A stretch of 64,000 nucleotides of DNA from Candidatus Omnitrophota bacterium (GCA_041652815.1 JBAZGN010000001.1:97363-161362), one strand, 5' to 3'; shown: positions 3,791 through 57,830, counted from the stretch's first letter. Numbers and translations are program-made. Notes: a model not told the origin generated them from the letters alone.

Positions 3791-4165
3791 TTTTGCCTCC
3801 TCTTTTCTATATAAACCCCGTTTTATGCCGGGGGATAAAATAGAAAACCCCTAGCAAAGCTAGGGGCTAAAAATAAGAAAACCTTGAGGCAAACTCAAGG
3901 TTAAACGTCCCTTTCTGGCGGCCAGGCTGCCCTTTTAGGGGCCCTTTAGCTTTGCGTCCTCCGATTACTCGGAGTTTGCCTTTTTCAGTAAGTCAAATTG
4001 TCAAATTGTCACTTTGTCACTTTCTACCTTTTATATAACATATTTTTGCATAACTTTCAAGTTAACTCAGAAAATACCTGCGAAGTGTGCATTTTCTGAG
4101 TTAAGCTAAAAGCCCAATAAAATCAATGATTTTTTGCCGAATTAGGCCCTCTGAAGTGCCCGCTG

Positions 4166-8184: not shown

Positions 8185-8763
8185 TTAATAATTCTCGGCT
8201 AAAACTTCGTAAAATGCCTGGGGATGTTTGCAGGCAGGGCACTGATCTGGAGCCTTATCTGATTCAATGATATATCCGCAGTTTATGCAATGCCATTTTA
8301 CGGGCTTTTTCTTTTTAAAAACCTCTCTGCTGGTGATGTTGTTTATTAATTTTCGATAGCGCGTTTCATGAAACATTTCTACCTTGGAAATATGCTCGAA
8401 TGAATTCGCAATCTCGGTAAAACCTTCTGCTTCGGCTGTTTTGGCAAAATCAGCATAAAGCGTTGTCCATTCAAGATTTTCTCCTGCTGCGGCTGCTTCA
8501 AGATTTGATTTTGTATCGCGTATCTGTCCTGCGGGGTAACTGGCTGTAATTTCTACATCCGAGCCCTCAAGATATTTAAAAAATACCTTGGCGTGTTCTT
8601 TTTCATTTTCTGCTGTTTCGGTAAAAATATTCGCTATCTGCTCAAAGCCTTCCTTCCTGGCGGCGCTTGCAAAATATGTATAACGATTTCTTGCCTGAGA
8701 TTCTCCGGCAAAAGACGCCAGTAAATTTTTTTCGGTCTTACTTCCTTTGATTGACTTTGCCAT
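8185..8763 (-). CDS. rbr: Rubrerythrin
   Basis: Ferritin-like diiron domain ([10 protein letters not shown]...EKEHAKVF...) plus C-terminal rubredoxin CxxC...CxxC (CINCGY...CPACKHP). Confidence 0.9.
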
Positions 8764-8834
8764 GTTTAGCCTCCTATTTAGTCCATAGTCGATAGATTTT
8801 TACTGTGGACTATGGTCTATAGACTGTGGACTGA

Positions 8835-9401
8835 TTATTTTTTTAGATATGCCTTTATTATTTTTACCTCAGAAACCGGCTTATCAGCTGCGCCGGTTTC
8901 TGTATTTTCTATTGCTTCCACCACATCATACCCTGAAATAACTTCGCCGAAAATTGTGTGCTTCATATTAAGCCATGGAGTAGCTGCAGTTGTAATAAAA
9001 AACTGGCTGCCGTTGGTATTAGGGCCGGCATTAGCCATGGCAAGTAAGCCGGGTTTGTCGAATTTAACGCCTGGGGTAACTTCGTCTTCAAAAGGCTTGC
9101 CGCTTGCAGATTTCCCGCCCATTCCCGTACCTGTGGGGTCACCGCCCTGAATCATAAAATCCTTTATTACTCTATGGAAGATAATGCCGTTATAATAACC
9201 TTTTTCTACAAGCTTTGTAAAATTTTCGCACGCCTTTGGCGCAACAGACGGCATAAGTTTAATTTCAATATTTCCCTTGTTTGTTTCTAAAACTACTATT
9301 TCATCCATAGCAAATGCCTCCTTACAAAAACTACCAATAAACAACCCAAGAACAAGCGCAATGATTAACTTTTTCATTTGGCACCTCCCTTTGTTGCGCA
9401 A
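8835..9401 (-). CDS. ppiB: Peptidyl-prolyl cis-trans isomerase, cyclophilin type, secreted
   Basis: FHRVIKDFMIQGGDPTGTGMGG and SQFFIT motifs. N-terminal signal peptide. Confidence 0.85.
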   Translation of the reverse strand: MRNKGRCQMKKLIIALVLGLFIGSFCKEAFAMDEIVVLETNKGNIEIKLMPSVAPKACENFTKLVEKGYYNGIIFHRVIKDFMIQGGDPTGTGMGGKSASGKPFEDEVTPGVKFDKPGLLAMANAGPNTNGSQFFITTAATPWLNMKHTIFGEVISGYDVVEAIENTETGAADKPVSEVKIIKAYLKK

Positions 9402-12868: not shown

Positions 12869-12884
12869 ATTAACCTCCATATTA

Positions 12885-12976
12885 TAGAAGCGGATAGCCG
12901 CGGATTTATACGCGGATAAACGCAAGCGAATTACTGTGCGTAAATCCGCGTTGCTATCTGCGGTAATCCGCTTCTA
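12885..12976. repeat. Full copy of the tagaagcggat MITE-like palindromic element
   Basis: About 85% identical over ~92 nt to the inverted copy at 29771-29863. Same terminal inverted repeats as 12627-12648. Confidence 0.65.
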
Positions 12977-15992: not shown

Positions 15993-16475
15993 CCCGCCCT
16001 TCCTCCTTAGTATTTAAGATTATTATTTTTGCCCCAACCCTTGTTTTTCTTGAAACCTATTAAACTTTTACTTATAAATATAACGCATTTCTGGAAGGGT
16101 GGGGTTCATAATAAATAGATTATACCAAGCATATTATAAAAATCTATAAGTAAATTTTAAACACGAATATCCACGAATCAAAGACGAATTGCCACGAATC
16201 ATTCGTGGAAATTTGTTTCGAATTCGTGGTCATTCGTGTTAACAAATTTATAATGAAAAATGCATAATTTATTGTAGAATATATAAATAATCAAATTAGG
16301 CTAAAGGCTAAACAACAAATTTCAATGAATTTCGCAAAGCGAATTTCTACTAATTTCGATTGTCCGCCACCGATGACTTTTTATATGTGGGCGGATCCGC
16401 CTCAGGCGGAAAATTGGTAGAAATTAAGAAATTGATAGAAATTTATTGTCTTTGATCTATTCGGAGGTTTTTGGA

Positions 16476-26149: not shown

Positions 26150-26290
26150 ATTTATAAAATAACCAAATCCCAAGATACAATAACCAAACAATAACCAATA
26201 ACCAAATTCCAATGACCAAACAAAAAATCAATACAATTGTTTGGTGATTGGTTATTGGATATTGGAATTTGTTTGGAGCTTGTATCTTGG
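26150..26290. repeat. About 140-nt imperfect palindrome built from accaa(a/t) units
   Basis: Identical 22-nt ends ataaccaaatcccaagatacaa in inverted orientation. Generates mirrored pseudo-ORFs 26049-26231 and 26241-26447 that share LYLGIWLFYK. Confidence 0.7.
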
Positions 26291-29020: not shown

Positions 29021-29203
29021 CATGATAATAGCTTTGAAACGCAGATGATCGCAGATCATTTTACAATAAATTTCTATTAATTTCTTAATTTCTACCAATT
29101 TCTATTACCATTGAAATTTATAGAAATTTGCTTTGCGAAATTGAGAAATTATTTATTAAATAATTTGTGATCATCTGCTTTAAAATCTGTAATTATCTGT
29201 GTG

Positions 29204-29770: not shown

Positions 29771-29863
29771 TAGAAGCGGATTCACGCGGATGTTTACGCG
29801 GATTTACGCACAATAATTCGTTGGCGTTTATCCGCGTATAAATCCGCGGCTATCCGCTTCTAT
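29771..29863. repeat. Second full copy (inverted) of the tagaagcggat MITE-like element
   Basis: Reverse complement aligns with 12885-12976, including the internal block gcggatttatacgcggataaacgc. Confidence 0.65.
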
Positions 29864-30660
29864 TATTTGAGTTCCTCGATACACGCCCTGAAAATTTCGG
29901 CGTCGAAAACCTTTTTTTCTTTGGTAAAACCACAAAGCAAGGCCCGGTCGCAAAGAACATTTATGAGCCTGGGTATTCCCTTTGAAAATTCATAAATTAA
30001 ATTGTAGCTTTCCGGCAAAATTTCAATATCAGCCTTGCCGGCAGTATTTAGGCGAAATTCTATATAATTTTTTACCTCTTCCGGTGCCAACGGCAAAATA
30101 TTATATTTAACGCATATGCGCTGGCGTATTTGCCTTAAATTAAACTGCTCTAATTTAGTCTTAAGCTCCGGCTGGCCCACAAGAATTATCTGGAGAAGTT
30201 TGTCTTGGGATGTCTCAAGATTAGAAAGCAGCCTTATTTGCTCAAGCTGCCGAGCAGTCAAATTCTGGGCTTCATCTATTATCAGAACAGCATTACTTCC
30301 CTTGGAATTTATATCGACCAGAAATTCGTTAAGCTTTTTTATTATTTCCAGGCGGTTTTTCTTTACAAGGTTTAACCCGAAATCTTCAATTACTGCACAA
30401 AGCAGCTGGACATCGCTAAAGGATGGATTAAGTATAAACGACGTTTTTATCTCACGCGGGAGCATAGAAAGTAAGGTTTTGCATAGCGTAGTTTTTCCTG
30501 TGCCTACCTCTCCCGTAATAAGCATAAGCCCGGTTTTAGAAGAAATTCCATACAAAAGGCAAGAAAGCGCTTCCTTATGAGAAATACTTTCAAAAAAAAA
30601 GTTTGGGTTGCTTGTTATATTAAAAGGAAGGGTTTTTAAGCCGTAAAATTTGGCATACAT
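29863..30660 (-). CDS. ExeA/GspA-family AAA+ ATPase (secretin assembly)
   Basis: Walker A GEVGTGKTT and Walker B VLIIDEAQNL. COG3267-like. Confidence 0.7.
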   Translation of the reverse strand: MYAKFYGLKTLPFNITSNPNFFFESISHKEALSCLLYGISSKTGLMLITGEVGTGKTTLCKTLLSMLPREIKTSFILNPSFSDVQLLCAVIEDFGLNLVKKNRLEIIKKLNEFLVDINSKGSNAVLIIDEAQNLTARQLEQIRLLSNLETSQDKLLQIILVGQPELKTKLEQFNLRQIRQRICVKYNILPLAPEEVKNYIEFRLNTAGKADIEILPESYNLIYEFSKGIPRLINVLCDRALLCGFTKEKKVFDAEIFRACIEELK

Positions 30661-37702: not shown

Positions 37703-39382
37703 TTACTCTGTCGTTGCGCGTAAGACCTCTTCTATAGAAGTTGTGCCTTCAATGCAATGCGCAAACCCATTTTCTCGTAAAGGCCTGTAACCTCTGTTTT
37801 TCATTGCGTATTCGATGATTTCGTCTTCCGAGCGCCGGCTTATAATCATTTCTTTCATTTTATCATCCAAAAGAAGAACCTCCAATATGGCTATTCTTCC
37901 CCTGTAACCGGTATCATTACAATAGCTACACCCCTTTGGTATGAAGAATGTCCTGTTATTGGTTTCAATTTTTAAGTTTTTCAAAACTTTTTCTTCTATC
38001 TCATATTTTTCTTTACATTTGGAACAAAGTTTCCGGACTAACCTTTGAGCTGTTGCCGCAACTAAAGACGATGCCAAGAGGAAAGGTTCGATGCCCATAT
38101 CGATAAGCCTGGTTATAGCGCCAACTGCTGTATTTGTATGCAGAGTCGAAAGAATAATTTCTCCGGTTAAAGATGCCTTTATTGCTATATCTGCTGTTTC
38201 GCTGTCTCTGATTTCTCCTACCATTATTATATCCGGCGACTGCCTGAGCACTGAACGCAAACCGTTTGCGAAAGTAAGCCCTATTTCGGTATTTACATGA
38301 ATTTGCGTTATCCCTTCTATCTGATACTCTATAGGATCTTCTATGGTGACTATGCTTTTTTCGGGAGTGTTTGTTTGATTAATTATCGAATAAAGTGTTG
38401 TTGATTTTCCGCTTCCCGTGGGCCCGGTTACAACAATCATTCCAAAAGGAGCTTTTGTCGCTTCCTCAAAAAGCTTAAGCGGCTCATCTGAGAACCCCAA
38501 GGCTTTTAAGCCGGTCGATAGATTTTCTTTGTCCAAAACTCTTAAAACAAATTTTTCCCCAAAATGCGTAGGCAGGCTTGATACTCGAAAATCTATCTCT
38601 CTGCCTTCGAATTTAACCTTGAAACGGCCGTCTTGCGGCAGGCGTGACTCGGTTATGTCCAAAGAAGAAATTATTTTAAGGCGTGCTATTACTGCTTGCT
38701 GGTTCTTTTTAGGAAAATTAAATTCTTCATGCAGGCTTCCATCTATTCTGTATTTTATTACTAATCTGTCTTGATAAGGCTCAACATGGATATCTGAGGC
38801 CCGTTTTTTTAAAGCATTGTAAATAAATAAATCAACCGCGCGCACAATCGGCGGGCGGGCGCTTTCATCAATCAGGGTTTCAAGAGAATCTTTTGCTTCA
38901 AAAACCTCACCTACTTCAAAATAAGAATCCTCATCGATAAATTTGGCAGTATCTTCCGTCTTATACAATATGCTTAGCGCTTTAACAATATCATCTTCCC
39001 TGGAAAGCACCAAGTCTACTCTTTCTGCACCGGTTATTATTTTGATATCGTCGTGGCTTAAAACATTTAAAGGGTTGCCGGTCGAAATAGTTAAAGCATT
39101 ACCAATTCTGCACACCGGAAAAACTTTATACCTAAAAGCTATATCTTGGGGTAACAAATCTTTATTTTTATAAGGTACTTTATATTTCTTCAAATCCAGA
39201 AAAGGTATCTTAAATTCTTTAGAAAAGATCAGAAGAAGCTCTTCTTCTGTCACAAGGTGGTTGTCGATAAGCAAGTGCTTAAAAATATCGTAGTTAGAAG
39301 CCCCCTCTATAGATTTAAGTACGTGCTTATTTATACTTTTATTTGCCTGTATGTAACTTAATATTTTATTTTTTAAACTCAT
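37703..39382 (-). CDS. GspE/PilB-family secretion ATPase (paralog 2)
   Basis: N-terminal T2SSE_N domain. Walker A GPTGSGKSTTLYS. C-terminal tetracysteine CSKC...CSYC. Confidence 0.8.
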   Translation of the reverse strand: MSLKNKILSYIQANKSINKHVLKSIEGASNYDIFKHLLIDNHLVTEEELLLIFSKEFKIPFLDLKKYKVPYKNKDLLPQDIAFRYKVFPVCRIGNALTISTGNPLNVLSHDDIKIITGAERVDLVLSREDDIVKALSILYKTEDTAKFIDEDSYFEVGEVFEAKDSLETLIDESARPPIVRAVDLFIYNALKKRASDIHVEPYQDRLVIKYRIDGSLHEEFNFPKKNQQAVIARLKIISSLDITESRLPQDGRFKVKFEGREIDFRVSSLPTHFGEKFVLRVLDKENLSTGLKALGFSDEPLKLFEEATKAPFGMIVVTGPTGSGKSTTLYSIINQTNTPEKSIVTIEDPIEYQIEGITQIHVNTEIGLTFANGLRSVLRQSPDIIMVGEIRDSETADIAIKASLTGEIILSTLHTNTAVGAITRLIDMGIEPFLLASSLVAATAQRLVRKLCSKCKEKYEIEEKVLKNLKIETNNRTFFIPKGCSYCNDTGYRGRIAILEVLLLDDKMKEMIISRRSEDEIIEYAMKNRGYRPLRENGFAHCIEGTTSIEEVLRATTE

Positions 39383-39463
39383 TTCTAAAGCCTTCAGCTA
39401 TCAGCTTTCAGTCTTCAGCTGAAAGCAGAAGACTGATGGCTGAAAGCTTTTTTAGTCTTTAGT

Positions 39464-43625: not shown

Positions 43626-44156
43626 TTATTTGATTTCTCCGTTTTTTATTACTGCTATCATGTCCTTAAGAAATTCTCTTTCAGCACTTGCTAATTTGAA
43701 ATGATGTTTAAGCAGTAATGTTAAATTCTTTGGTGTATTTTTATGTTCTTTTTCTTTTTCAAGCAACCATCGTTTTACCTTTTCCAAAAACCAAAGCCGC
43801 AGCCTTAGTAGCGGCAAAATCTTTTTTTTATCAAGGAAAGGTAAAAAATATAAAGCCACATCTAATTCAACGAAAGGTTGACGCTGCGAAAGAAATATTT
43901 GCCTGCAAAGCTCGAAGAATTCCTTCTCTCCGCGAGGCGTTATATGATAAATGTATTTATTAAGGTTCTTTTTCCCTTTAATTTCCTTTTTTTTTACAAG
44001 GCCCTGCTCCTCCATTTTGCTAAGAGGGTAGTATATCGATTGCATTTCAAATTCAGAAAAAATTCCCATTTCTTTCTGAATTATTTTTTTTATCTGATAA
44101 CCGTGCTTGGGGCCTTCTTTTAAAATACCTAATATTACAAGCCGCTGTATACGCAT
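43626..44156 (-). CDS. PadR-family transcriptional regulator
   Basis: ILGILKEGPKHGYQIKKII...YYPLSKMEEQGLV. Confidence 0.75.
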   Translation of the reverse strand: MRIQRLVILGILKEGPKHGYQIKKIIQKEMGIFSEFEMQSIYYPLSKMEEQGLVKKKEIKGKKNLNKYIYHITPRGEKEFFELCRQIFLSQRQPFVELDVALYFLPFLDKKKILPLLRLRLWFLEKVKRWLLEKEKEHKNTPKNLTLLLKHHFKLASAEREFLKDMIAVIKNGEIK

Positions 44157-44227
44157 CTTTTAAAGCTCTCAGCTGTCAGCTTTCAGTTATCAGCTCCTGA
44201 AAGCCGATAGCTGATGGCTGATAGCCT

Positions 44228-45181
44228 TTATTCCTTAAACACACCCATCTTTCTGAATTTATCGTACCTTAGCTTAAGAAGTGTGTTTATATCCATACTT
44301 GTCAACTCTTTCAGACCCTTTAAGATTGACTCTTTTAAATTCTTAGCCGTTATTTCATAATTTCTATGGGCGCCGCCTTCAGGCTCCTGGATAATTTCAT
44401 CTATTATTCCTAAGTTTAATAAATCCGGCGCGGTTAATTTTAAAACTTTTGCTGCTTCCTTTTTTGCCGCTGCATCTTTCCACAAAATAGCAGCGCATCC
44501 TTCCGGAGAAATAACTGAATAATAAGCGTATTCCATTGTTAAAACTTTATCCCCCACCCCAATTCCCAAGGCTCCCCCTGACCCACCTTCGCCTATCACG
44601 ACAACAACAATTGGGGCCCTGATGCAAAACATATCTCGTATATTTTCTGCAATCGCTAGGGCTTGTCCGCGCTCTTCAGCCCCTATTCCCGGATACGCGC
44701 CTGGTGTATCAATAAGACAAACTATAGGCAAACCAAATCTTTCTCCAAGGCGCATAAGCCTGATTGCTTTACGGTACCCTTCAGGATTTGCACAACCAAA
44801 GCTTCTGGCAATGTTTTCTTTTGTATCTTTGCCTTTTTGGTGCCCGATAAGAACAATTTTTTTGTCATCCAGCGTTGCAAGACCGGCAATAATCGCCCTG
44901 TCTTCTCCGAAAAGCCTATCACCGCACAAAAGCAAAAAATCTTTCATTATAAGATTGATATAATCCATGGTGGTAGGCCTTTTTGGATGGCGGGCGATTT
45001 GTATTGTCTGCCAGGGAGATAAATTAGAATAGATTCCTTTTTTGAGGTTCTTTAATTTTTTCTCCAAATTATTTATCTCTGCAGATAGATCAACTTCTTT
45101 TTCTGCAGAGAACCTCCTCAACTCTTCAATCTTTCTCTCCAACTCAATAACTGGTTTTTCAAAATCCCAATTTTCTATCAT
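44228..45181 (-). CDS. accA: Acetyl-CoA carboxylase carboxyltransferase alpha subunit
   Basis: Full-length AccA motifs (…IGHQKGKDTKENI…DTPGAYPGIGAEERGQ…). Confidence 0.9.
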   Translation of the reverse strand: MIENWDFEKPVIELERKIEELRRFSAEKEVDLSAEINNLEKKLKNLKKGIYSNLSPWQTIQIARHPKRPTTMDYINLIMKDFLLLCGDRLFGEDRAIIAGLATLDDKKIVLIGHQKGKDTKENIARSFGCANPEGYRKAIRLMRLGERFGLPIVCLIDTPGAYPGIGAEERGQALAIAENIRDMFCIRAPIVVVVIGEGGSGGALGIGVGDKVLTMEYAYYSVISPEGCAAILWKDAAAKKEAAKVLKLTAPDLLNLGIIDEIIQEPEGGAHRNYEITAKNLKESILKGLKELTSMDINTLLKLRYDKFRKMGVFKE

Positions 45182-45248
45182 TTGAATAGCCTTCAGCTTT
45201 CAGTCGTCAGTCTTCAGCAGCTGAAAGCTGATGACTGACAGTTTATTA

Positions 45249-46049
45249 TTAATCGATAATAGTTACCTCTGTGCCCACAGGAACCATGTCGTATAATTCT
45301 TCCACTTCTTCGTTACGCATTCTGACACAACCAAGAGTAACTTGTTTGCCAAGCTGCCCTGGTTCGGTTGTGCCGTGTATTCCGTAGCCTTTTGCTTCAA
45401 TGCCCAGCCAACGGGTACCTAAAATATTCTCCGGGCTATCGGGCGGAACAACTGCTCCGGCTTTAAACCAAGTAGGGTTAGGCTGTTTATTAACAATTTT
45501 AAAGACACCTACCGGGGTTGAATTATTTTTACCCGTAGAAACTATATAAGTTTTCACTATCTCATCGCCGACCTTTAAAAAAAGAAGGTTTTGCGATTTA
45601 TCAACCACTATGGAAAATTTACAGTTATTAATTTTTAATTCCTGTTCGGGCCTTATTACATCCGAGCTTAGATTGTTGGTTCTTTTGATAAGTTCTATTG
45701 TGGTATTATTTTCTTTGGCAATCTTCGCCAAGCTATCGTTTGGCCTTACAATGTATTTCTTCGCGCATTTATCTACTATGGGAGAAAATATAATTTTTAT
45801 ATTTATATCCTCTATCTTTCTTTGTATTTCTTTAAGCCTTGCGGTATCGTCTGTTTTTTCCTGCGCCTGCTCATAAAGTTTTTTTGCCGCCAGCAAATCG
45901 CCGTTAAGGAATGCCATATCTGCTTCTTTTAGATAGGCTTTCTGAAAATTTGATTGTGCATTGTTAGATTTCCTCCCCAAAGCAAATAACACAGCCAGAG
46001 CAACGACAATCGCAATTGCCGCTATGATTATTATGAATTGTTTTTTCAT
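45249..46049 (-). CDS. L,D-transpeptidase (YkuD) with LysM domain
   Basis: LysM (IVRPNDSLAKIAKENNTTIELIKRTNNL). Catalytic GIHGT...LGCVRM. AAGGAG RBS at MKKQF. Confidence 0.8.
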   Translation of the reverse strand: MKKQFIIIIAAIAIVVALAVLFALGRKSNNAQSNFQKAYLKEADMAFLNGDLLAAKKLYEQAQEKTDDTARLKEIQRKIEDINIKIIFSPIVDKCAKKYIVRPNDSLAKIAKENNTTIELIKRTNNLSSDVIRPEQELKINNCKFSIVVDKSQNLLFLKVGDEIVKTYIVSTGKNNSTPVGVFKIVNKQPNPTWFKAGAVVPPDSPENILGTRWLGIEAKGYGIHGTTEPGQLGKQVTLGCVRMRNEEVEELYDMVPVGTEVTIID

Positions 46050-55217: not shown

Positions 55218-55261
55218 AAGCCCTCCTTATATGAATTAAGGTTTATTTTGGTTAAAGTAAA

Positions 55262-55335
55262 TGGCGGCGAGTGGATTTGAACCACCGACGCAACGGGTAT
55301 GAGCCGTTTGCTCTACCAAGCTGAGCTACACCGCC
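55262..55335 (-). tRNA. tRNA-Met (anticodon CAU; elongator Met or lysidine-modified Ile2 cannot be distinguished)
   Basis: Reverse complement GGCGGTGTAGCTCAGCTTGGTAGAGCAAACGGCTCATACCCGTTGCGTCGGTGGTTCAAATCCACTCGCCGCCA folds as a canonical cloverleaf. CCA not encoded. Confidence 0.85.
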
Positions 55336-55427
55336 AAATTAGTTAACTAAAGTAAAATAGCACGAGCGAGTGGATTTTCCGCCTTCGCTAAAGCTTCGGC
55401 GGACCCGCCTTTTATTTTATATTAAGG

Positions 55428-55491
55428 TGGCGGGGAACCACCGACCGAACGGGTATGAGCCGTTTGCTCTACCAAGCTGAGCTATCCCGCC
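55428..55491 (-). pseudogene. Truncated tRNA-Met(CAU) paralog lacking about 10 nt of the T-arm
   Basis: GGCGGGATAGCTCAGCTTGGTAGAGCAAACGGCTCATACCCGTTCGGTCGGTGGTTCCCCGCCA. The acceptor/D/anticodon arms are intact, but the T-loop is deleted and the acceptor 3' strand has an extra C. Confidence 0.55.
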
Positions 55492-55573
55492 AGTGTGTAG
55501 GATTATATCATCGATAAGCAAAAAATCTATCAAAAAGCTGGATAGCTGAAAGCTGACGACTGATGACTGGCAG

Positions 55574-56659
55574 CTATAGATTTTTATATATCTCAATAAG
55601 CGGGACATTGAATTTTCTTGCGGCAATAAGACAATCTTCGTATTCCGGGGCATCTTTTTGGAATGGTTCAGCGGATATCCTAAATCTGATTTTTCCGAAT
55701 TTAGTTTTTTTTGAAACAAAATTATATTTCAGCTTGTCTCTTGAATATTCGCTGTAACGTATGCCAAAAGTGGTTGTGTGAGAAAAAATTACATCTCTTA
55801 TTTTTTCAAAATCCTTATGCATGCATAAAACGTTTAAGACAAAAGCCGGCCTGGTTTTTTTCATAATAACCTGCTCGATATATGCTTCTCTTGCACCATT
55901 TGCATAAAGCTTTTCAAAAACATTTTCGAACGCTTGCGGATTCATATCGTCGATATTTGTTTCTATCTTAATTATTTTATCTTGCTCTATCTGTGGACTA
56001 TGGTCTATGGACTGTGGACTTAAATAGGCAACAAGGTAATCGGTTTCTGCGGCAGCACCATAAGCAGTGCTGTATTTTCCCAAATCGAAGCTGCATTCAA
56101 GCTGATTCGCATCTTTTAATAATATTGCCGCGGTAGGCGTTATTGATTCGTAGCCAAAGTTTTTGGGATTTATTTTTTTACCTTTAAGAATTTCGAAAGT
56201 TGCTCTTGACGGCATACTTAAGGGAAAATTTGAAACGTATATCTCGTTAATTCCGAGGTATTGAAGCCCGATATAAAAACCACAGATTTCTAAAATTGCA
56301 TCGAGCTTGCCTAAGTGGTGGAATTTAAAATCCGCTGTCTTTGCGCCGTGGATTTTGCGTTCTATTTCGAAAAGTTCTTGATACGCGCGTATAGCTTTCT
56401 CTCTAATACCTCTCTCCAGTTTTGATTTAGAAATAAGTTTTAGTATCTTAAGATAAGACAGGTTAAGTTCTCCTTTGAAATCCAAACATTTATTTTTGTG
56501 GTGGTTATTTTCTATTTCTTTTAAGGCGATATCGAAATCCACATTCAGTTTTCTAAGTTCTTTTTTTAGATGCGAAACGGGATACCCCAGGCCGATTAAG
56601 GAATAAAGCAGCATATCGCCTGCTGCACCGCCGACAAGTTGGAAATATATACTTTTCAT
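55574..56659 (-). CDS. larC: Nickel-pincer cofactor biosynthesis protein LarC (DUF111)
   Basis: MKSIYFQLVGGAAGDMLLYSLIGLG N-terminus. Contains an in-frame repeat-derived insertion SPQSIDHSPQ at 55991-56021. Confidence 0.7.
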   Translation of the reverse strand: MKSIYFQLVGGAAGDMLLYSLIGLGYPVSHLKKELRKLNVDFDIALKEIENNHHKNKCLDFKGELNLSYLKILKLISKSKLERGIREKAIRAYQELFEIERKIHGAKTADFKFHHLGKLDAILEICGFYIGLQYLGINEIYVSNFPLSMPSRATFEILKGKKINPKNFGYESITPTAAILLKDANQLECSFDLGKYSTAYGAAAETDYLVAYLSPQSIDHSPQIEQDKIIKIETNIDDMNPQAFENVFEKLYANGAREAYIEQVIMKKTRPAFVLNVLCMHKDFEKIRDVIFSHTTTFGIRYSEYSRDKLKYNFVSKKTKFGKIRFRISAEPFQKDAPEYEDCLIAARKFNVPLIEIYKNL

Positions 56660-56761
56660 AACGCTAATTGACGCGAATCTAACGCAAATAAACGCGAATG
56701 AAAAACAAATGCGAATAAAACTATTCGTGAACATTCGCGTTCGATTCGCGAGTATTCGCGT

Positions 56762-57454
56762 TTATTTGTTAATCAAATGCGCGAAGTATCCTGCTCCAAG
56801 CCCGTTGTCTATATTTACGCACACAGACCCAGGCGCACAACTATTAAGCATACCTAAAAGTGCGCTAAGGCCCCGGAAAGACGCTCCATAACCAATGCTT
56901 GTAGGAACTCCGATTATGGGTGATGGGCAAATACCTGAAATTATACTTAACAAAGCTGCTTCCATGCCGGCAACAACGATTAAAACATGTGCCTTTCTTA
57001 TTTTATCCTTGTAAGGTGTAATCCTGTGCACGCCGGCAACGCCTATATCGTAAATCCTTTCCACTTTGTTTCCTAAAATTTCAAGAAACATTGCGGCCTC
57101 TTCAGCAACAGGAATGTCTGAAGTGCCTGCTGTAATTATCAGGCAATTTCCACGATTTGCGTTAATTTCTTTTCCCAAAAAAGCGAGCTGGGAAATTTTA
57201 AAATATTTTAATTTAGGGTAGGATTTTTTTAATATTTTAAATTGAGGTTGCGTGAGGCGCGATATAAAGATTAAATTGGTATATTTTTTAAATTCCTTAA
57301 TGATGCCTTTAAGTTGATTAATAGTTTTACCTGGTGCGTAAATTATTTCCGGCAGACCCTTCCTTCTTTCTCTTTCAATATCAAGCTTAACAAATTCAAG
57401 GTCAATAAATCCTTTGGGTTTCATTAAACAAAGAGGTCTTTGAAAATCGTCCAA
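56762..57454 (-). CDS. larB: Nickel-pincer cofactor biosynthesis protein LarB (PurE-like carboxylase)
   Basis: VVAGMEAALLSIISGICPSPIIGVPTSIGYGASFRGLSALLGMLNSCAPGSVCVNIDNGLGAG. The start may be the internal MKPKGF. Confidence 0.75.
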   Translation of the reverse strand: MDDFQRPLCLMKPKGFIDLEFVKLDIERERRKGLPEIIYAPGKTINQLKGIIKEFKKYTNLIFISRLTQPQFKILKKSYPKLKYFKISQLAFLGKEINANRGNCLIITAGTSDIPVAEEAAMFLEILGNKVERIYDIGVAGVHRITPYKDKIRKAHVLIVVAGMEAALLSIISGICPSPIIGVPTSIGYGASFRGLSALLGMLNSCAPGSVCVNIDNGLGAGYFAHLINK

Positions 57455-57732
57455 AGCAGCGCAACAATTACGGCAGCAGAAACTATATAGAAATCATTGA
57501 AATATAGGAATTCGCGTAAAGCATCCTTAAATTTGTGCTTTTTTTCCGGCAGGTTATATTTATTTTTTATCGTTTCTTTAACTTTAGAAATCTCTTCTTT
57601 TCGAAAACGCAGGAATTCTCCCGCTACTTTAAAACTTGGGAGAAGATTTGCATTTGCCAAATCTATAATCTCTTGTTCGCTTAAACCCAAAATTTTTGAC
57701 ACTTCTCTTGTAGTTAATAATCTTTCTTTCAT
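57424..57732 (-). CDS. Excisionase/MerR-like HTH domain protein with C-terminal TM anchor
   Basis: LTTREVSKILGLSEQEIIDLANANLLPSFKV HTH. C-terminal IVSAAVIVALLWTIF. Confidence 0.5.
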   Translation of the reverse strand: MKERLLTTREVSKILGLSEQEIIDLANANLLPSFKVAGEFLRFRKEEISKVKETIKNKYNLPEKKHKFKDALREFLYFNDFYIVSAAVIVALLWTIFKDLFV

Positions 57733-57740
57733 CTTTAAAA

Positions 57741-57830
57741 GCCTTCAGCTATCAGATGTCAGCCATCAGCTGCCCTTCAAGGGGCACCCCTTGGGGACTG
57801 AGAGCTGAAAGCTGATGTCTGAAAGCTATT
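57741..57830. repeat. cagc-heptad palindrome, second copy of the cagctgcccttcaaggggcaccccttgggg core
   Basis: Matches 878-966. Shorter cagc-type palindromes without the core at 39389-39448, 44164-44229, 45188-45242 and 55538-55578, each just downstream of a stop codon. Confidence 0.6.

Follow-up and report, generated by a model that had tools for sequence, protein, structure and literature searches.

Tandem heptamer arrays in the interdomain linker of LarC in an Omnitrophota bacterium and at the same junction in related genomes

The 64,000-nucleotide stretch of Candidatus Omnitrophota DNA analyzed here (JBAZGN010000001.1:97363-161362; hereafter the window) carries a larC-family gene in which a short array of 7-base tandem repeats encodes part of the linker between the two protein domains, LarC1 and LarC2. 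A nearly identical array lies in an intergenic hairpin elsewhere in the window. The features concerned are as follows.

55574-56659, minus strand: larC-family gene of 361 codons plus stop (55574-55576), with the methionine of MKSIYF as the true start, as indicated by orthologue starts.
56021-56659, minus strand: LarC1 part, residues 1-213, ending in DYLVAYL, delimited by homologue alignment and a TIGR00299 match at residues 70-204.
56021-56028, minus strand: the 8-mer CCTATTTA, covering the A-Y-L codons and adjoining the array on its 5' side; a second copy precedes the left arm of the hairpin at 8780.
55991-56020, minus strand: imperfect heptamer array of 4.3 units, AGTCCAC AGTCCAT AGACCAT AGTCCAC AG on the coding strand (consensus AGTCCAY).
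55986-55990, minus strand: ATAGA (codons I-E), the conserved 3' edge of the variable patch in all orthologues, also present within units (CATAGAC) and at the end of the hairpin left arm.
55577-55990, minus strand: remainder of the linker (IEQDK) and LarC2, residues 224-361, with 6BWO aligning from residue 227 and NF052512 matching residues 229-343.
8780-8795, plus strand: left arm of the 8780 hairpin, AGTCCAT AGTCGAT AG, of the same heptamer family in inverted orientation, preceded by CCTATTT.
8803-8832, plus strand: near-identical array (29/30), the right side of the isomerase/rubrerythrin intercistronic hairpin, recognized by sequence match and fold.

The protein is 100% identical (361 residues) to one from a Candidatus Omnitrophica metagenome-assembled genome, encoded on a contig of 810,962 bp, and its NCBI name is 'LarC family nickel insertion protein'. 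The mechanical open reading frame (ORF) has 386 codons, extending 75 bases further upstream into a repeat hairpin. The NCBIfam LarC2 model NF052512 scored 121 bits against a cutoff of 50, and the LarC1 model TIGR00299 scored 76.6 bits, under its cutoff of 90 and thus below the equivalog level. PF01969 is recorded on all LarC hits, and the protein has the Ni_insertion/DUF111 fold with the LarC2 CTP-binding domain, as in LarC, which inserts nickel into the nickel-pincer cofactor. The full-length LarC structure from Moorella (PDB 12bi) aligns throughout (E = 2.5e-36), and the LarC2 crystal structure from Lactiplantibacillus plantarum (6BWO) aligns from residue 227. The Omnitrophota LarC clade lacks the 12-residue GxGxVxCxHGxL of canonical LarC (alignment columns ~187-198); judged by this missing segment and the LarC1 score below the NCBIfam cutoff, Omnitrophota LarC may be a functionally divergent subfamily. 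A gene with an AIRC domain (PF00731), as expected of larB, lies directly upstream in all orthologous loci.

In the AlphaFold model (mean predicted local distance difference test score 89.9), the lowest confidence (blocks of 74 and 68) falls on a coil at residues 215-224, which sits between strands 208-214 and 225-235. With LarC1 extending to residue 213 and LarC2 starting at about 227, the array coincides with this coil, and its placement between the two LarC domains by an earlier note on this DNA holds. The 31-mer described in that note is likewise present at 55991-56021, in frame within larC and encoding SPQSIDHSPQ: the array reads AGT CCA CAG TCC ATA GAC CAT AGT CCA CAG and specifies residues 214-223. 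Two of the six frames of the 30-mer contain stops, three are Trp/Leu/Val/Tyr-rich, and one is hydrophilic. The frame used in larC, which is Ser/Pro/Gln-rich with a mean hydropathy of -1.48, is the sole frame both open and clearly hydrophilic; the other array-derived LarC linkers described below are likewise charged or Gly/Ser/Pro-rich.

Tandem Repeats Finder reported period 7 with 3.9 copies and 85% matches at 55994-56020, and period 7 again at the 8803 site. The lag-7 self-match segment spans 55990-56022, and with at least three head-to-tail units the larC sequence is a heptamer array. When compared with 8803-8832, positions 55991-56020 were identical at 29 of 30 bases, the sole mismatch being G versus A; base 31 also differs, giving 29/31, one fewer than the 30/31 reported earlier. 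The partner at 8803-8833 reads ctgtggactatggtctatagactgtggactg, and both copies consist of the units TGGACTA TGGTCTA TRGACTG TGGACT following CTG, the tail of a further unit. In 100 dinucleotide-preserving shuffles, no match to the larC/8803 30-mer occurred at three or fewer mismatches. The window's commonest array family provides a stricter comparison: 55 pairs among 11 arms had a mean identity of 0.77 and a maximum of 0.88, so that the larC/8803 value of 0.97 still stands out, though less dramatically than against shuffles. The two copies also share the TGGTCTA unit and the order of units, and TGGTCT is rare in TGGACTN arrays (2/244 among the matches listed).

The 8780-8832 segment folds on the transcribed (minus) strand (-16.1 kcal/mol, z = -2.47), with 8780-8795 pairing with 8817-8832, and this hairpin fills the spacer between a peptidyl-prolyl isomerase ORF (8835-9401) and a rubrerythrin ORF (8185-8763), both on the minus strand. 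In larC there is a single arm, with no inverted TGGACT match nearby and a local fold z of -0.85; a local RNA hairpin inside larC was rejected on the basis of this z value and the missing inverted partner. The term palindrome arm, under which the sequence had been introduced, suits the partner, which does sit in a hairpin, but what the two loci have in common is a run of tandem heptamers and not a unique palindrome arm.

Comparison with orthologues revealed that the array is specific to this lineage. Across 36 aligned homologues, the protein varies most in the stretch bounded by the conserved motifs DYLVAYL and IIKIET. The two orthologues nearest to the query (357 residues, 77% identity) have ISEQPEI and IGQGFKA in place of SPQSIDHSPQI, and their DNA contains 18 unrelated bases between the conserved TAT-YTN and ATA-GAR codons in the position of the 30-base array. 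Because those 18 native bases are missing where the array sits, the event was a replacement that lengthened the gene by 12 bases and the protein by four residues, and not the insertion of 10 extra residues that had been supposed. No target-site duplication was found: the flanks are TTA and ATA, and the native linker codons between them are replaced. None of the linkers of 60 LarC orthologues contained SPQSIDHSPQ, save two records of the same 90% cluster. When the linker was left out, a neighbor-joining tree placed the query inside a clade in which each of the twelve other members has a linker of 10-11 residues, and since the query lies among short-linker relatives, the segment is derived and not ancestral. 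The orthologue alignment recommended in the earlier note thus points to a lineage-specific segment, the peptide being absent from the unrelated taxa in which it might have been found, and an origin as ancestral coding sequence was rejected.

The identical linker peptide is present in three protein records of this species from separate sources (NCBI, JGI, and ENA; contigs of 810,962, 217,198, and 7,280 bp), with no difference in unit number; one of them differs elsewhere by one residue (Tyr-to-His). Because these sources share SPQSIDHSPQ, the linker is not to be regarded as an assembly accident. A chimeric join through the repeat, produced in assembly or binning, would be suggested by the fact that short repeats can mislead assemblers and that the source is a metagenome-assembled genome. 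Given the three records, the intact frame and domains, and the conserved synteny of larB and tRNA-Met, such an artefact is scarcely credible.

Other Omnitrophota LarC genes carry different arrays at the same junction. Across the 60 orthologues the base linker has 8-12 residues, 15 linkers are longer, and the natural range is 8 to 46 residues. We read the DNA of nine long-linker and three short-linker larC genes. Eight of the nine long linkers contained a heptamer array or a decayed array extending from directly after codon 213 to before ATAGA, and the DNA of the P0030 linker showed no clear 7-base periodicity. The units observed in these orthologues were the following.

P0026 (locus L003): NCAGARG, ~13 units.
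P0028 (L126): AGCCTGN, at least 8 units.
P0018 (L127): TCAGAAG, ~5 units.
P0023 (L128): a decayed relative of TCAGAAG.
P0014 (L129): GGGCGAG, 4 units.
P0016 (L001): CCACCAT, 3 units.
P0022 (L143): ACGAAAG arrays around a small stem-loop.

P0016 had been considered as a carrier of the query's heptamer family, a guess from its IDRSPSTINHP peptide that was rejected when its DNA unit proved to be the different CCACCAT. Small G+C-rich stem-loop modules accompany the arrays in two of the linkers, at 2901-2987 of L143 (P0022) and at 10652-10789 of L126 (P0028); the former, CCCCGAAGGGG, is flanked by direct ACGAAAG arrays, and both it and the latter, GGCTTTGGCTAACGGAAGCCAAACC, resemble the apex modules of intergenic hairpins.

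The long linkers represent at least seven independent events on the tree. In the pair P0015 and P0016 (L142 and L001; 92.8% nucleotide identity), a clean 18-to-39-base replacement was observed at the same boundaries. At L129, L003, and L143, the linker's unit family also occurs in intergenic arrays within a few kilobases, with 82-86% identity. Because related bacteria carry different heptamers at the same spot, repeat DNA has settled in this linker more than once, which strengthens the earlier suggestion that the hairpin-forming repeats can invade genes and that linkers tolerate them. The extensions measured exactly +7, +14, or +35 residues in 9 of the 15 long linkers (binomial P = 5e-5), and in 6/11 when counted by independent events (P = 0.002). 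Such 21-base steps are what would be expected if 7-base units were added while the reading frame had to be preserved.

A survey of 217 kb of Omnitrophota DNA, with ~200 ORFs and 63 arrays, yielded six arrays inside credible genes, all of them in LarC linkers. Another candidate, at 4502-4551 of L141, was discarded since it sits upstream of the real FabH start. The difference between 15/60 for LarC and 0/195 for other ORFs (Fisher P ~1e-10) comes from a comparison in which several loci had been picked for long LarC linkers and the detector misses decayed arrays.

The LarC linker has been studied in other bacteria. In the electron cryomicroscopy structure of Moorella thermoacetica LarC, a 13-residue flexible tether at this point connects LarC1 trimers to a LarC2 hexamer core, and every linker alteration tested cut activity below 10%; linker length, flexibility, and composition were considered critical (2026 study, PMC13510736). 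In L. plantarum, larC1 and larC2 each have a reading frame of their own, and programmed frameshifting connects the two (PMC13510736). In contrast to Moorella, natural linkers range from 8 to 46 residues in the Omnitrophota clade, whose LarC1 score below the cutoff marks it as a possibly divergent subfamily.

These findings bear on a functional explanation, in which one- or two-unit changes would shift the frame and uncouple LarC2 and three-unit changes would retune the linker under positive selection. The use of programmed frameshifting at this very boundary in L. plantarum, the dependence of Moorella LarC activity on linker length and composition, the strong enrichment at this one linker, and an orthologue with ~13 near-perfect units, a slippage-prone length, all speak for a switch or tuning device. 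It nevertheless appears very unlikely for the window array, which is short and imperfect, so that slippage should be rare, and which has the same linker in all three species records. No out-of-frame or split larC was seen in the clade, where a search for LarC2-only proteins yielded short ones, of which P0244 (125 residues) was checked at the DNA level and was found to start at a contig end, and many array-derived linkers are decaying by point mutation, as neutral passengers would. Phase-variable contingency loci are alike in having an in-ORF repeat with a unit that is not a multiple of three, but the array here is short and imperfect, and among the three records there were no alleles differing in unit number and none out of frame.

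Heptamer arrays are frequent throughout the window. Lag-7 self-similarity, measured by a sliding-window count, yielded 17 segments in the 64 kb, corresponding to ~13 loci, where lags 4-6 yielded none and shuffles an expected 0.1; units are only ~70-85% alike, and decayed arrays escape the detector. Many unrelated unit families coexist (NNTCAGC, TTTAGGG, ACAGAGT, CAATAAC, and others), along with arrays of 8-11-base units. The arrays are mostly paired and inverted, forming imperfect hairpins in the spacers of co-directional minus-strand genes, near stop-to-start. The larC array is the only one within a real gene, all others lying between genes; a candidate gene-internal array at 26185-26213 was rejected, as it falls in a spurious N-terminal extension of a radical-SAM-type ORF.

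To place the larC sequence in a wider context, we scanned metagenomes for the exact 27-mer TGGACTATGGTCTATGGACTGTGGACT. Twelve loci were found (at least 8 of them distinct; L130-L141), with 39-67% G+C, and one high-G+C locus that was checked belonged to Omnitrophota by its NagZ homologues. In every metagenome locus the 27-mer forms the right arm of an intergenic hairpin, while the left arms, loops, unit numbers, and neighboring genes differ. No match was found in viral contigs, and a phage vector for the 27-mer was rejected on that ground. The sequence TGGTCTATGGACTATGGACTGTGGACT is an example of the 27-mer's four units in permuted order. A looser pattern of four TGGACTN units matched at least 120 loci in many phyla, mostly as perfect arrays (L004-L123), which makes the TGGACTN unit widespread; among the matches listed were Verrucomicrobiota, Planctomycetota, Acidobacteriota, Cyanobacteria, Bacteroidota, Saccharibacteria, and others. 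Since the exact 27-mer occurs in other hairpins, near-identity inside one genome need not mean a direct copy between two loci.

The distribution of the 27-mer is one reason for considering a mobile hairpin element, similar to repetitive extragenic palindromic (REP) elements or miniature inverted-repeat transposable elements (MITEs) and moved by a Y1/RAYT-type transposase, that inserted in the linker and later lost an arm. REP sequences and the bacterial interspersed mosaic elements (BIMEs) of enterobacteria are imperfect hairpins in intercistronic spacers of operons, present in many copies with a conserved family sequence and associated with the RAYT transposase. The window hairpins resemble them in position, but REP sequences are not built of heptamers, and neither a conserved family sequence nor a RAYT transposase was found in the 64 kb covered. 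The two inverted arms of a REP/BIME- or MITE-like element are present at 8780-8832 and absent from larC. A mobile element would account for an exact 27-mer in hairpins of distant Omnitrophota with unrelated flanks and very different G+C, for two window hairpins with a common conserved loop module (family D4), for a Y1 transposase gene at the edge of locus L003 in another genome, and for the stem-loop modules in two orthologue linkers. It is set against the single arm and lack of a local fold in larC, the replacement of native sequence in place of its interruption with a target-site duplication, the free variation of left arms, loops, and unit numbers among copies, and linker steps of 21 bases, which are expected of slippage and not of a fixed element. 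No transposase was seen near any copy in the window, the 27-mer had no match in viral contigs, and we consider such an element improbable.

The abundance of TGGACTN arrays in many phyla would also be compatible with an origin in place, by slippage within the native linker and convergence on a favored heptamer. The conserved ATAGA beside the linker resembles part of the unit, and the identical 27-mer in unrelated genomes indicates that the sequence can recur. The native linkers of the closest orthologues are unlike the unit, however, and convergence would have to reproduce the rare TGGTCT unit at the same position, an identity of 0.97 that exceeds all 55 within-family comparisons, and the flanking 8-mer CCTATTTA common to both loci. 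Across both strands of the window this 8-mer was found only twice, before the larC array and, with a one-base offset, before the left arm at 8780. An origin in place is accordingly judged highly unlikely.

We therefore favor as the probable explanation that the array is of repeat origin and that template switching copied it from the intergenic repertoire into the linker, where decay and slippage filtered by the reading frame followed; the repeat origin and the linker location are more certain than the mechanism and direction of copying. In a recent ancestor of the lineage, a copy of an AGTCCAY array would have replaced the ~18 native bases encoding the LarC1-LarC2 linker. Its source would be the arm now at 8803-8832 or a sister of it, with transfer running from hairpin to larC. 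The route may have been template switching during replication or a patch resembling gene conversion, with CCTATTTA as the 5' and ATAGA as the 3' boundary; the short flank identities would fit either, as far as a single case can indicate. Once present, arrays would lengthen or shorten in 7-base steps by slipped-strand mispairing, and selection would retain stop-free versions whose length is a multiple of 3 and whose peptide is hydrophilic. Tolerance of the array would follow from its position in a disordered tether that links two independently folding domains; the hotspot may reflect nothing beyond tolerance, or a longer linker may bring some advantage.

Several observations weigh against this explanation. 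Hairpins at 8 or more distinct metagenome loci, with 39-67% G+C and other flanking genes, have the exact 27-mer as their right arm. The flank match is one base off (TTT-AGTCC versus TTTA-AGTCC) and is a single observation with a rough chance probability of ~1e-3. The net gain of 12 bases is no whole number of heptamers. Donor copies were sought in 64 kb of a source contig of 811 kb, and the three same-species records contained no unit-number polymorphism that would indicate slippage in action. The hotspot itself (15/60 versus 0 of ~195 ORFs) exceeds what simple tolerance predicts, and in this respect the account is incomplete.

Two further readings may be considered. The linker could conceivably be a true mutational or selected hotspot, at which arrays of the intergenic repertoire are recruited as an evolvable length module in quanta of 7 residues and domains are possibly uncoupled by one-unit slippage; we hold this doubtful, but less so than the alternatives discussed above. 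If it were true, the module would act in an enzyme whose linker length has been shown experimentally, in Moorella, to control activity (PMC13510736). In addition, the exact 27-mer in hairpins of distant Omnitrophota may represent a horizontally spreading or protein-recognized element rather than chance.

Heptamer tandem repeats are over-represented in some bacteria, where they are mostly intergenic and polymerase slippage has been proposed (Mrazek et al. 2007, as summarized in PMC4679880 and PMC4692102). As described in those summaries, they resemble the arrays of the window in their head-to-tail 7-base units, their over-representation relative to other unit lengths, and their mostly intergenic position; the window arrays are mostly imperfect (each unit varies at one or two positions), inverted-paired, and spacer-filling, with many families per genome. 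In marine Beggiatoaceae, TAACTGA arrays inside ORFs lie mainly at protein peripheries or outside assigned domains, and insertion limited by tolerance was proposed (MacGregor 2015, PMC4679880). These are similar in forming intergenic arrays near start codons and, in a minority, arrays in ORFs that yield 7-residue periodic peptides, but they involve one unit and direct repeats only, with no recurrent site in one protein family reported (PMC4679880). The LarC case differs in its internal interdomain linker and in the different unit families at the same junction according to lineage. Intragenic and inverted heptamer arrays are also known from Xanthomonas (GGGAATC) and Nostoc (GGGGA(T/C)T), as are the short tandemly repeated repetitive (STRR) heptamers of cyanobacteria (Rehm et al. 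2015, PMC4692102). Like the arrays described here, they are dispersed, near gene ends, and in few cases intragenic, some form inverted stem-loops, and their length varies among close relatives; the Xanthomonas and Nostoc repeats are G-rich and quadruplex-forming, whereas the larC array is not G-rich and has no predicted self-fold. The literature searched held no account of heptamer repeats in Omnitrophota or in bacteria of the Planctomycetes-Verrucomicrobia-Chlamydiae (PVC) group, nor of repeated independent colonization of one interdomain linker by different unit families or of 21-base quantization.

The repeats of the LarC linkers are thus of a known kind, and their location is unusual, recurrent, and accessible to experiment. 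Heptamer repeats have long been noted and left unexplained in some bacteria, with rare in-gene copies treated as curiosities, and a defined protein site colonized at least seven times by different heptamer families offers a natural system for the passage of non-coding repeats into protein sequence. The 21-base length steps show how slippage by 7 bases and the demands of the reading frame act together, and the natural series of LarC linkers from 8 to 46 residues can be compared with the Moorella findings. In practical terms, the arrays cause mis-called gene starts in Omnitrophota genomes.

Stop-free arrays upstream of true starts were observed to generate spurious N-terminal ORF extensions at 56660-56734 (larC), 26150-26212 (the radical-SAM-type ORF), and 4426-4551 of L141 (FabH), and the extended larC call (386 versus 361 residues) is present in one database record (P0122). 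The neighborhood of larC contains the following features.

55534-55578, no strand assigned: AAAGCTG-type heptamer array of a different family, spanning the larC stop (55574-55576) and located upstream of a degenerate tRNA copy and tRNA-Met.
56660-56766, no strand assigned: hairpin of 10-21-base repeat units (AAACGCGAAT type) that fills the spacer between larB and larC.
56762-57454: ORF of 230 residues upstream of larC, in the larB position.

Downstream of larC, tRNA-Met (CAT) and its degenerate copy occupy 55261-55336 and 55428-55491 on the minus strand. The degenerate upstream duplicate shows 93% identity across 58 bases, scored 33 bits in Rfam, and was not called by ARAGORN. The order of larC, heptamer array, and tRNA-Met is kept in L003 and L129, where the array ends ~4-6 bases from the 5' end of the tRNA.

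Hairpins of heptamer arrays fill spacers from stop to start codon at 868-968, 39379-39451, 44154-44229, 45178-45255, 57730-57830, and other sites. In the arm unit next to the start codon, GAAGG or GAGAG lies 6-9 bases ahead of ATG, so that the ribosome-binding site seems to be provided by the repeat. The hairpins at 868-968 and 57730-57830 have in common the 27-base loop module TGCCCTTCA(A)GGGGCACCCCTTGGGG (family D4) with differing heptamer arms, and this type looks like a modular element.

At the Rfam gathering threshold, the window contained just two tRNA matches and a cyclic di-GMP riboswitch, and the arrays matched no known RNA family. The riboswitch is a c-di-GMP-I-GGC aptamer (3913-3989, minus strand; 63 bits, gathering score 59) and abuts an 8-base tandem array at 3992-4023. 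Inverted matches between loci were found for 12878-12976 versus 29771-29869 (99 bases, 88%) and for 16411-16449 versus 29063-29101 (39 bases, 97%), both pairs being hairpins of 10-base units (GCGGAT type and AAATTTCT type). Because these 10-base-unit hairpins show such long inverted matches between loci, near-identical distant arms are not unique to the TGGACT family.

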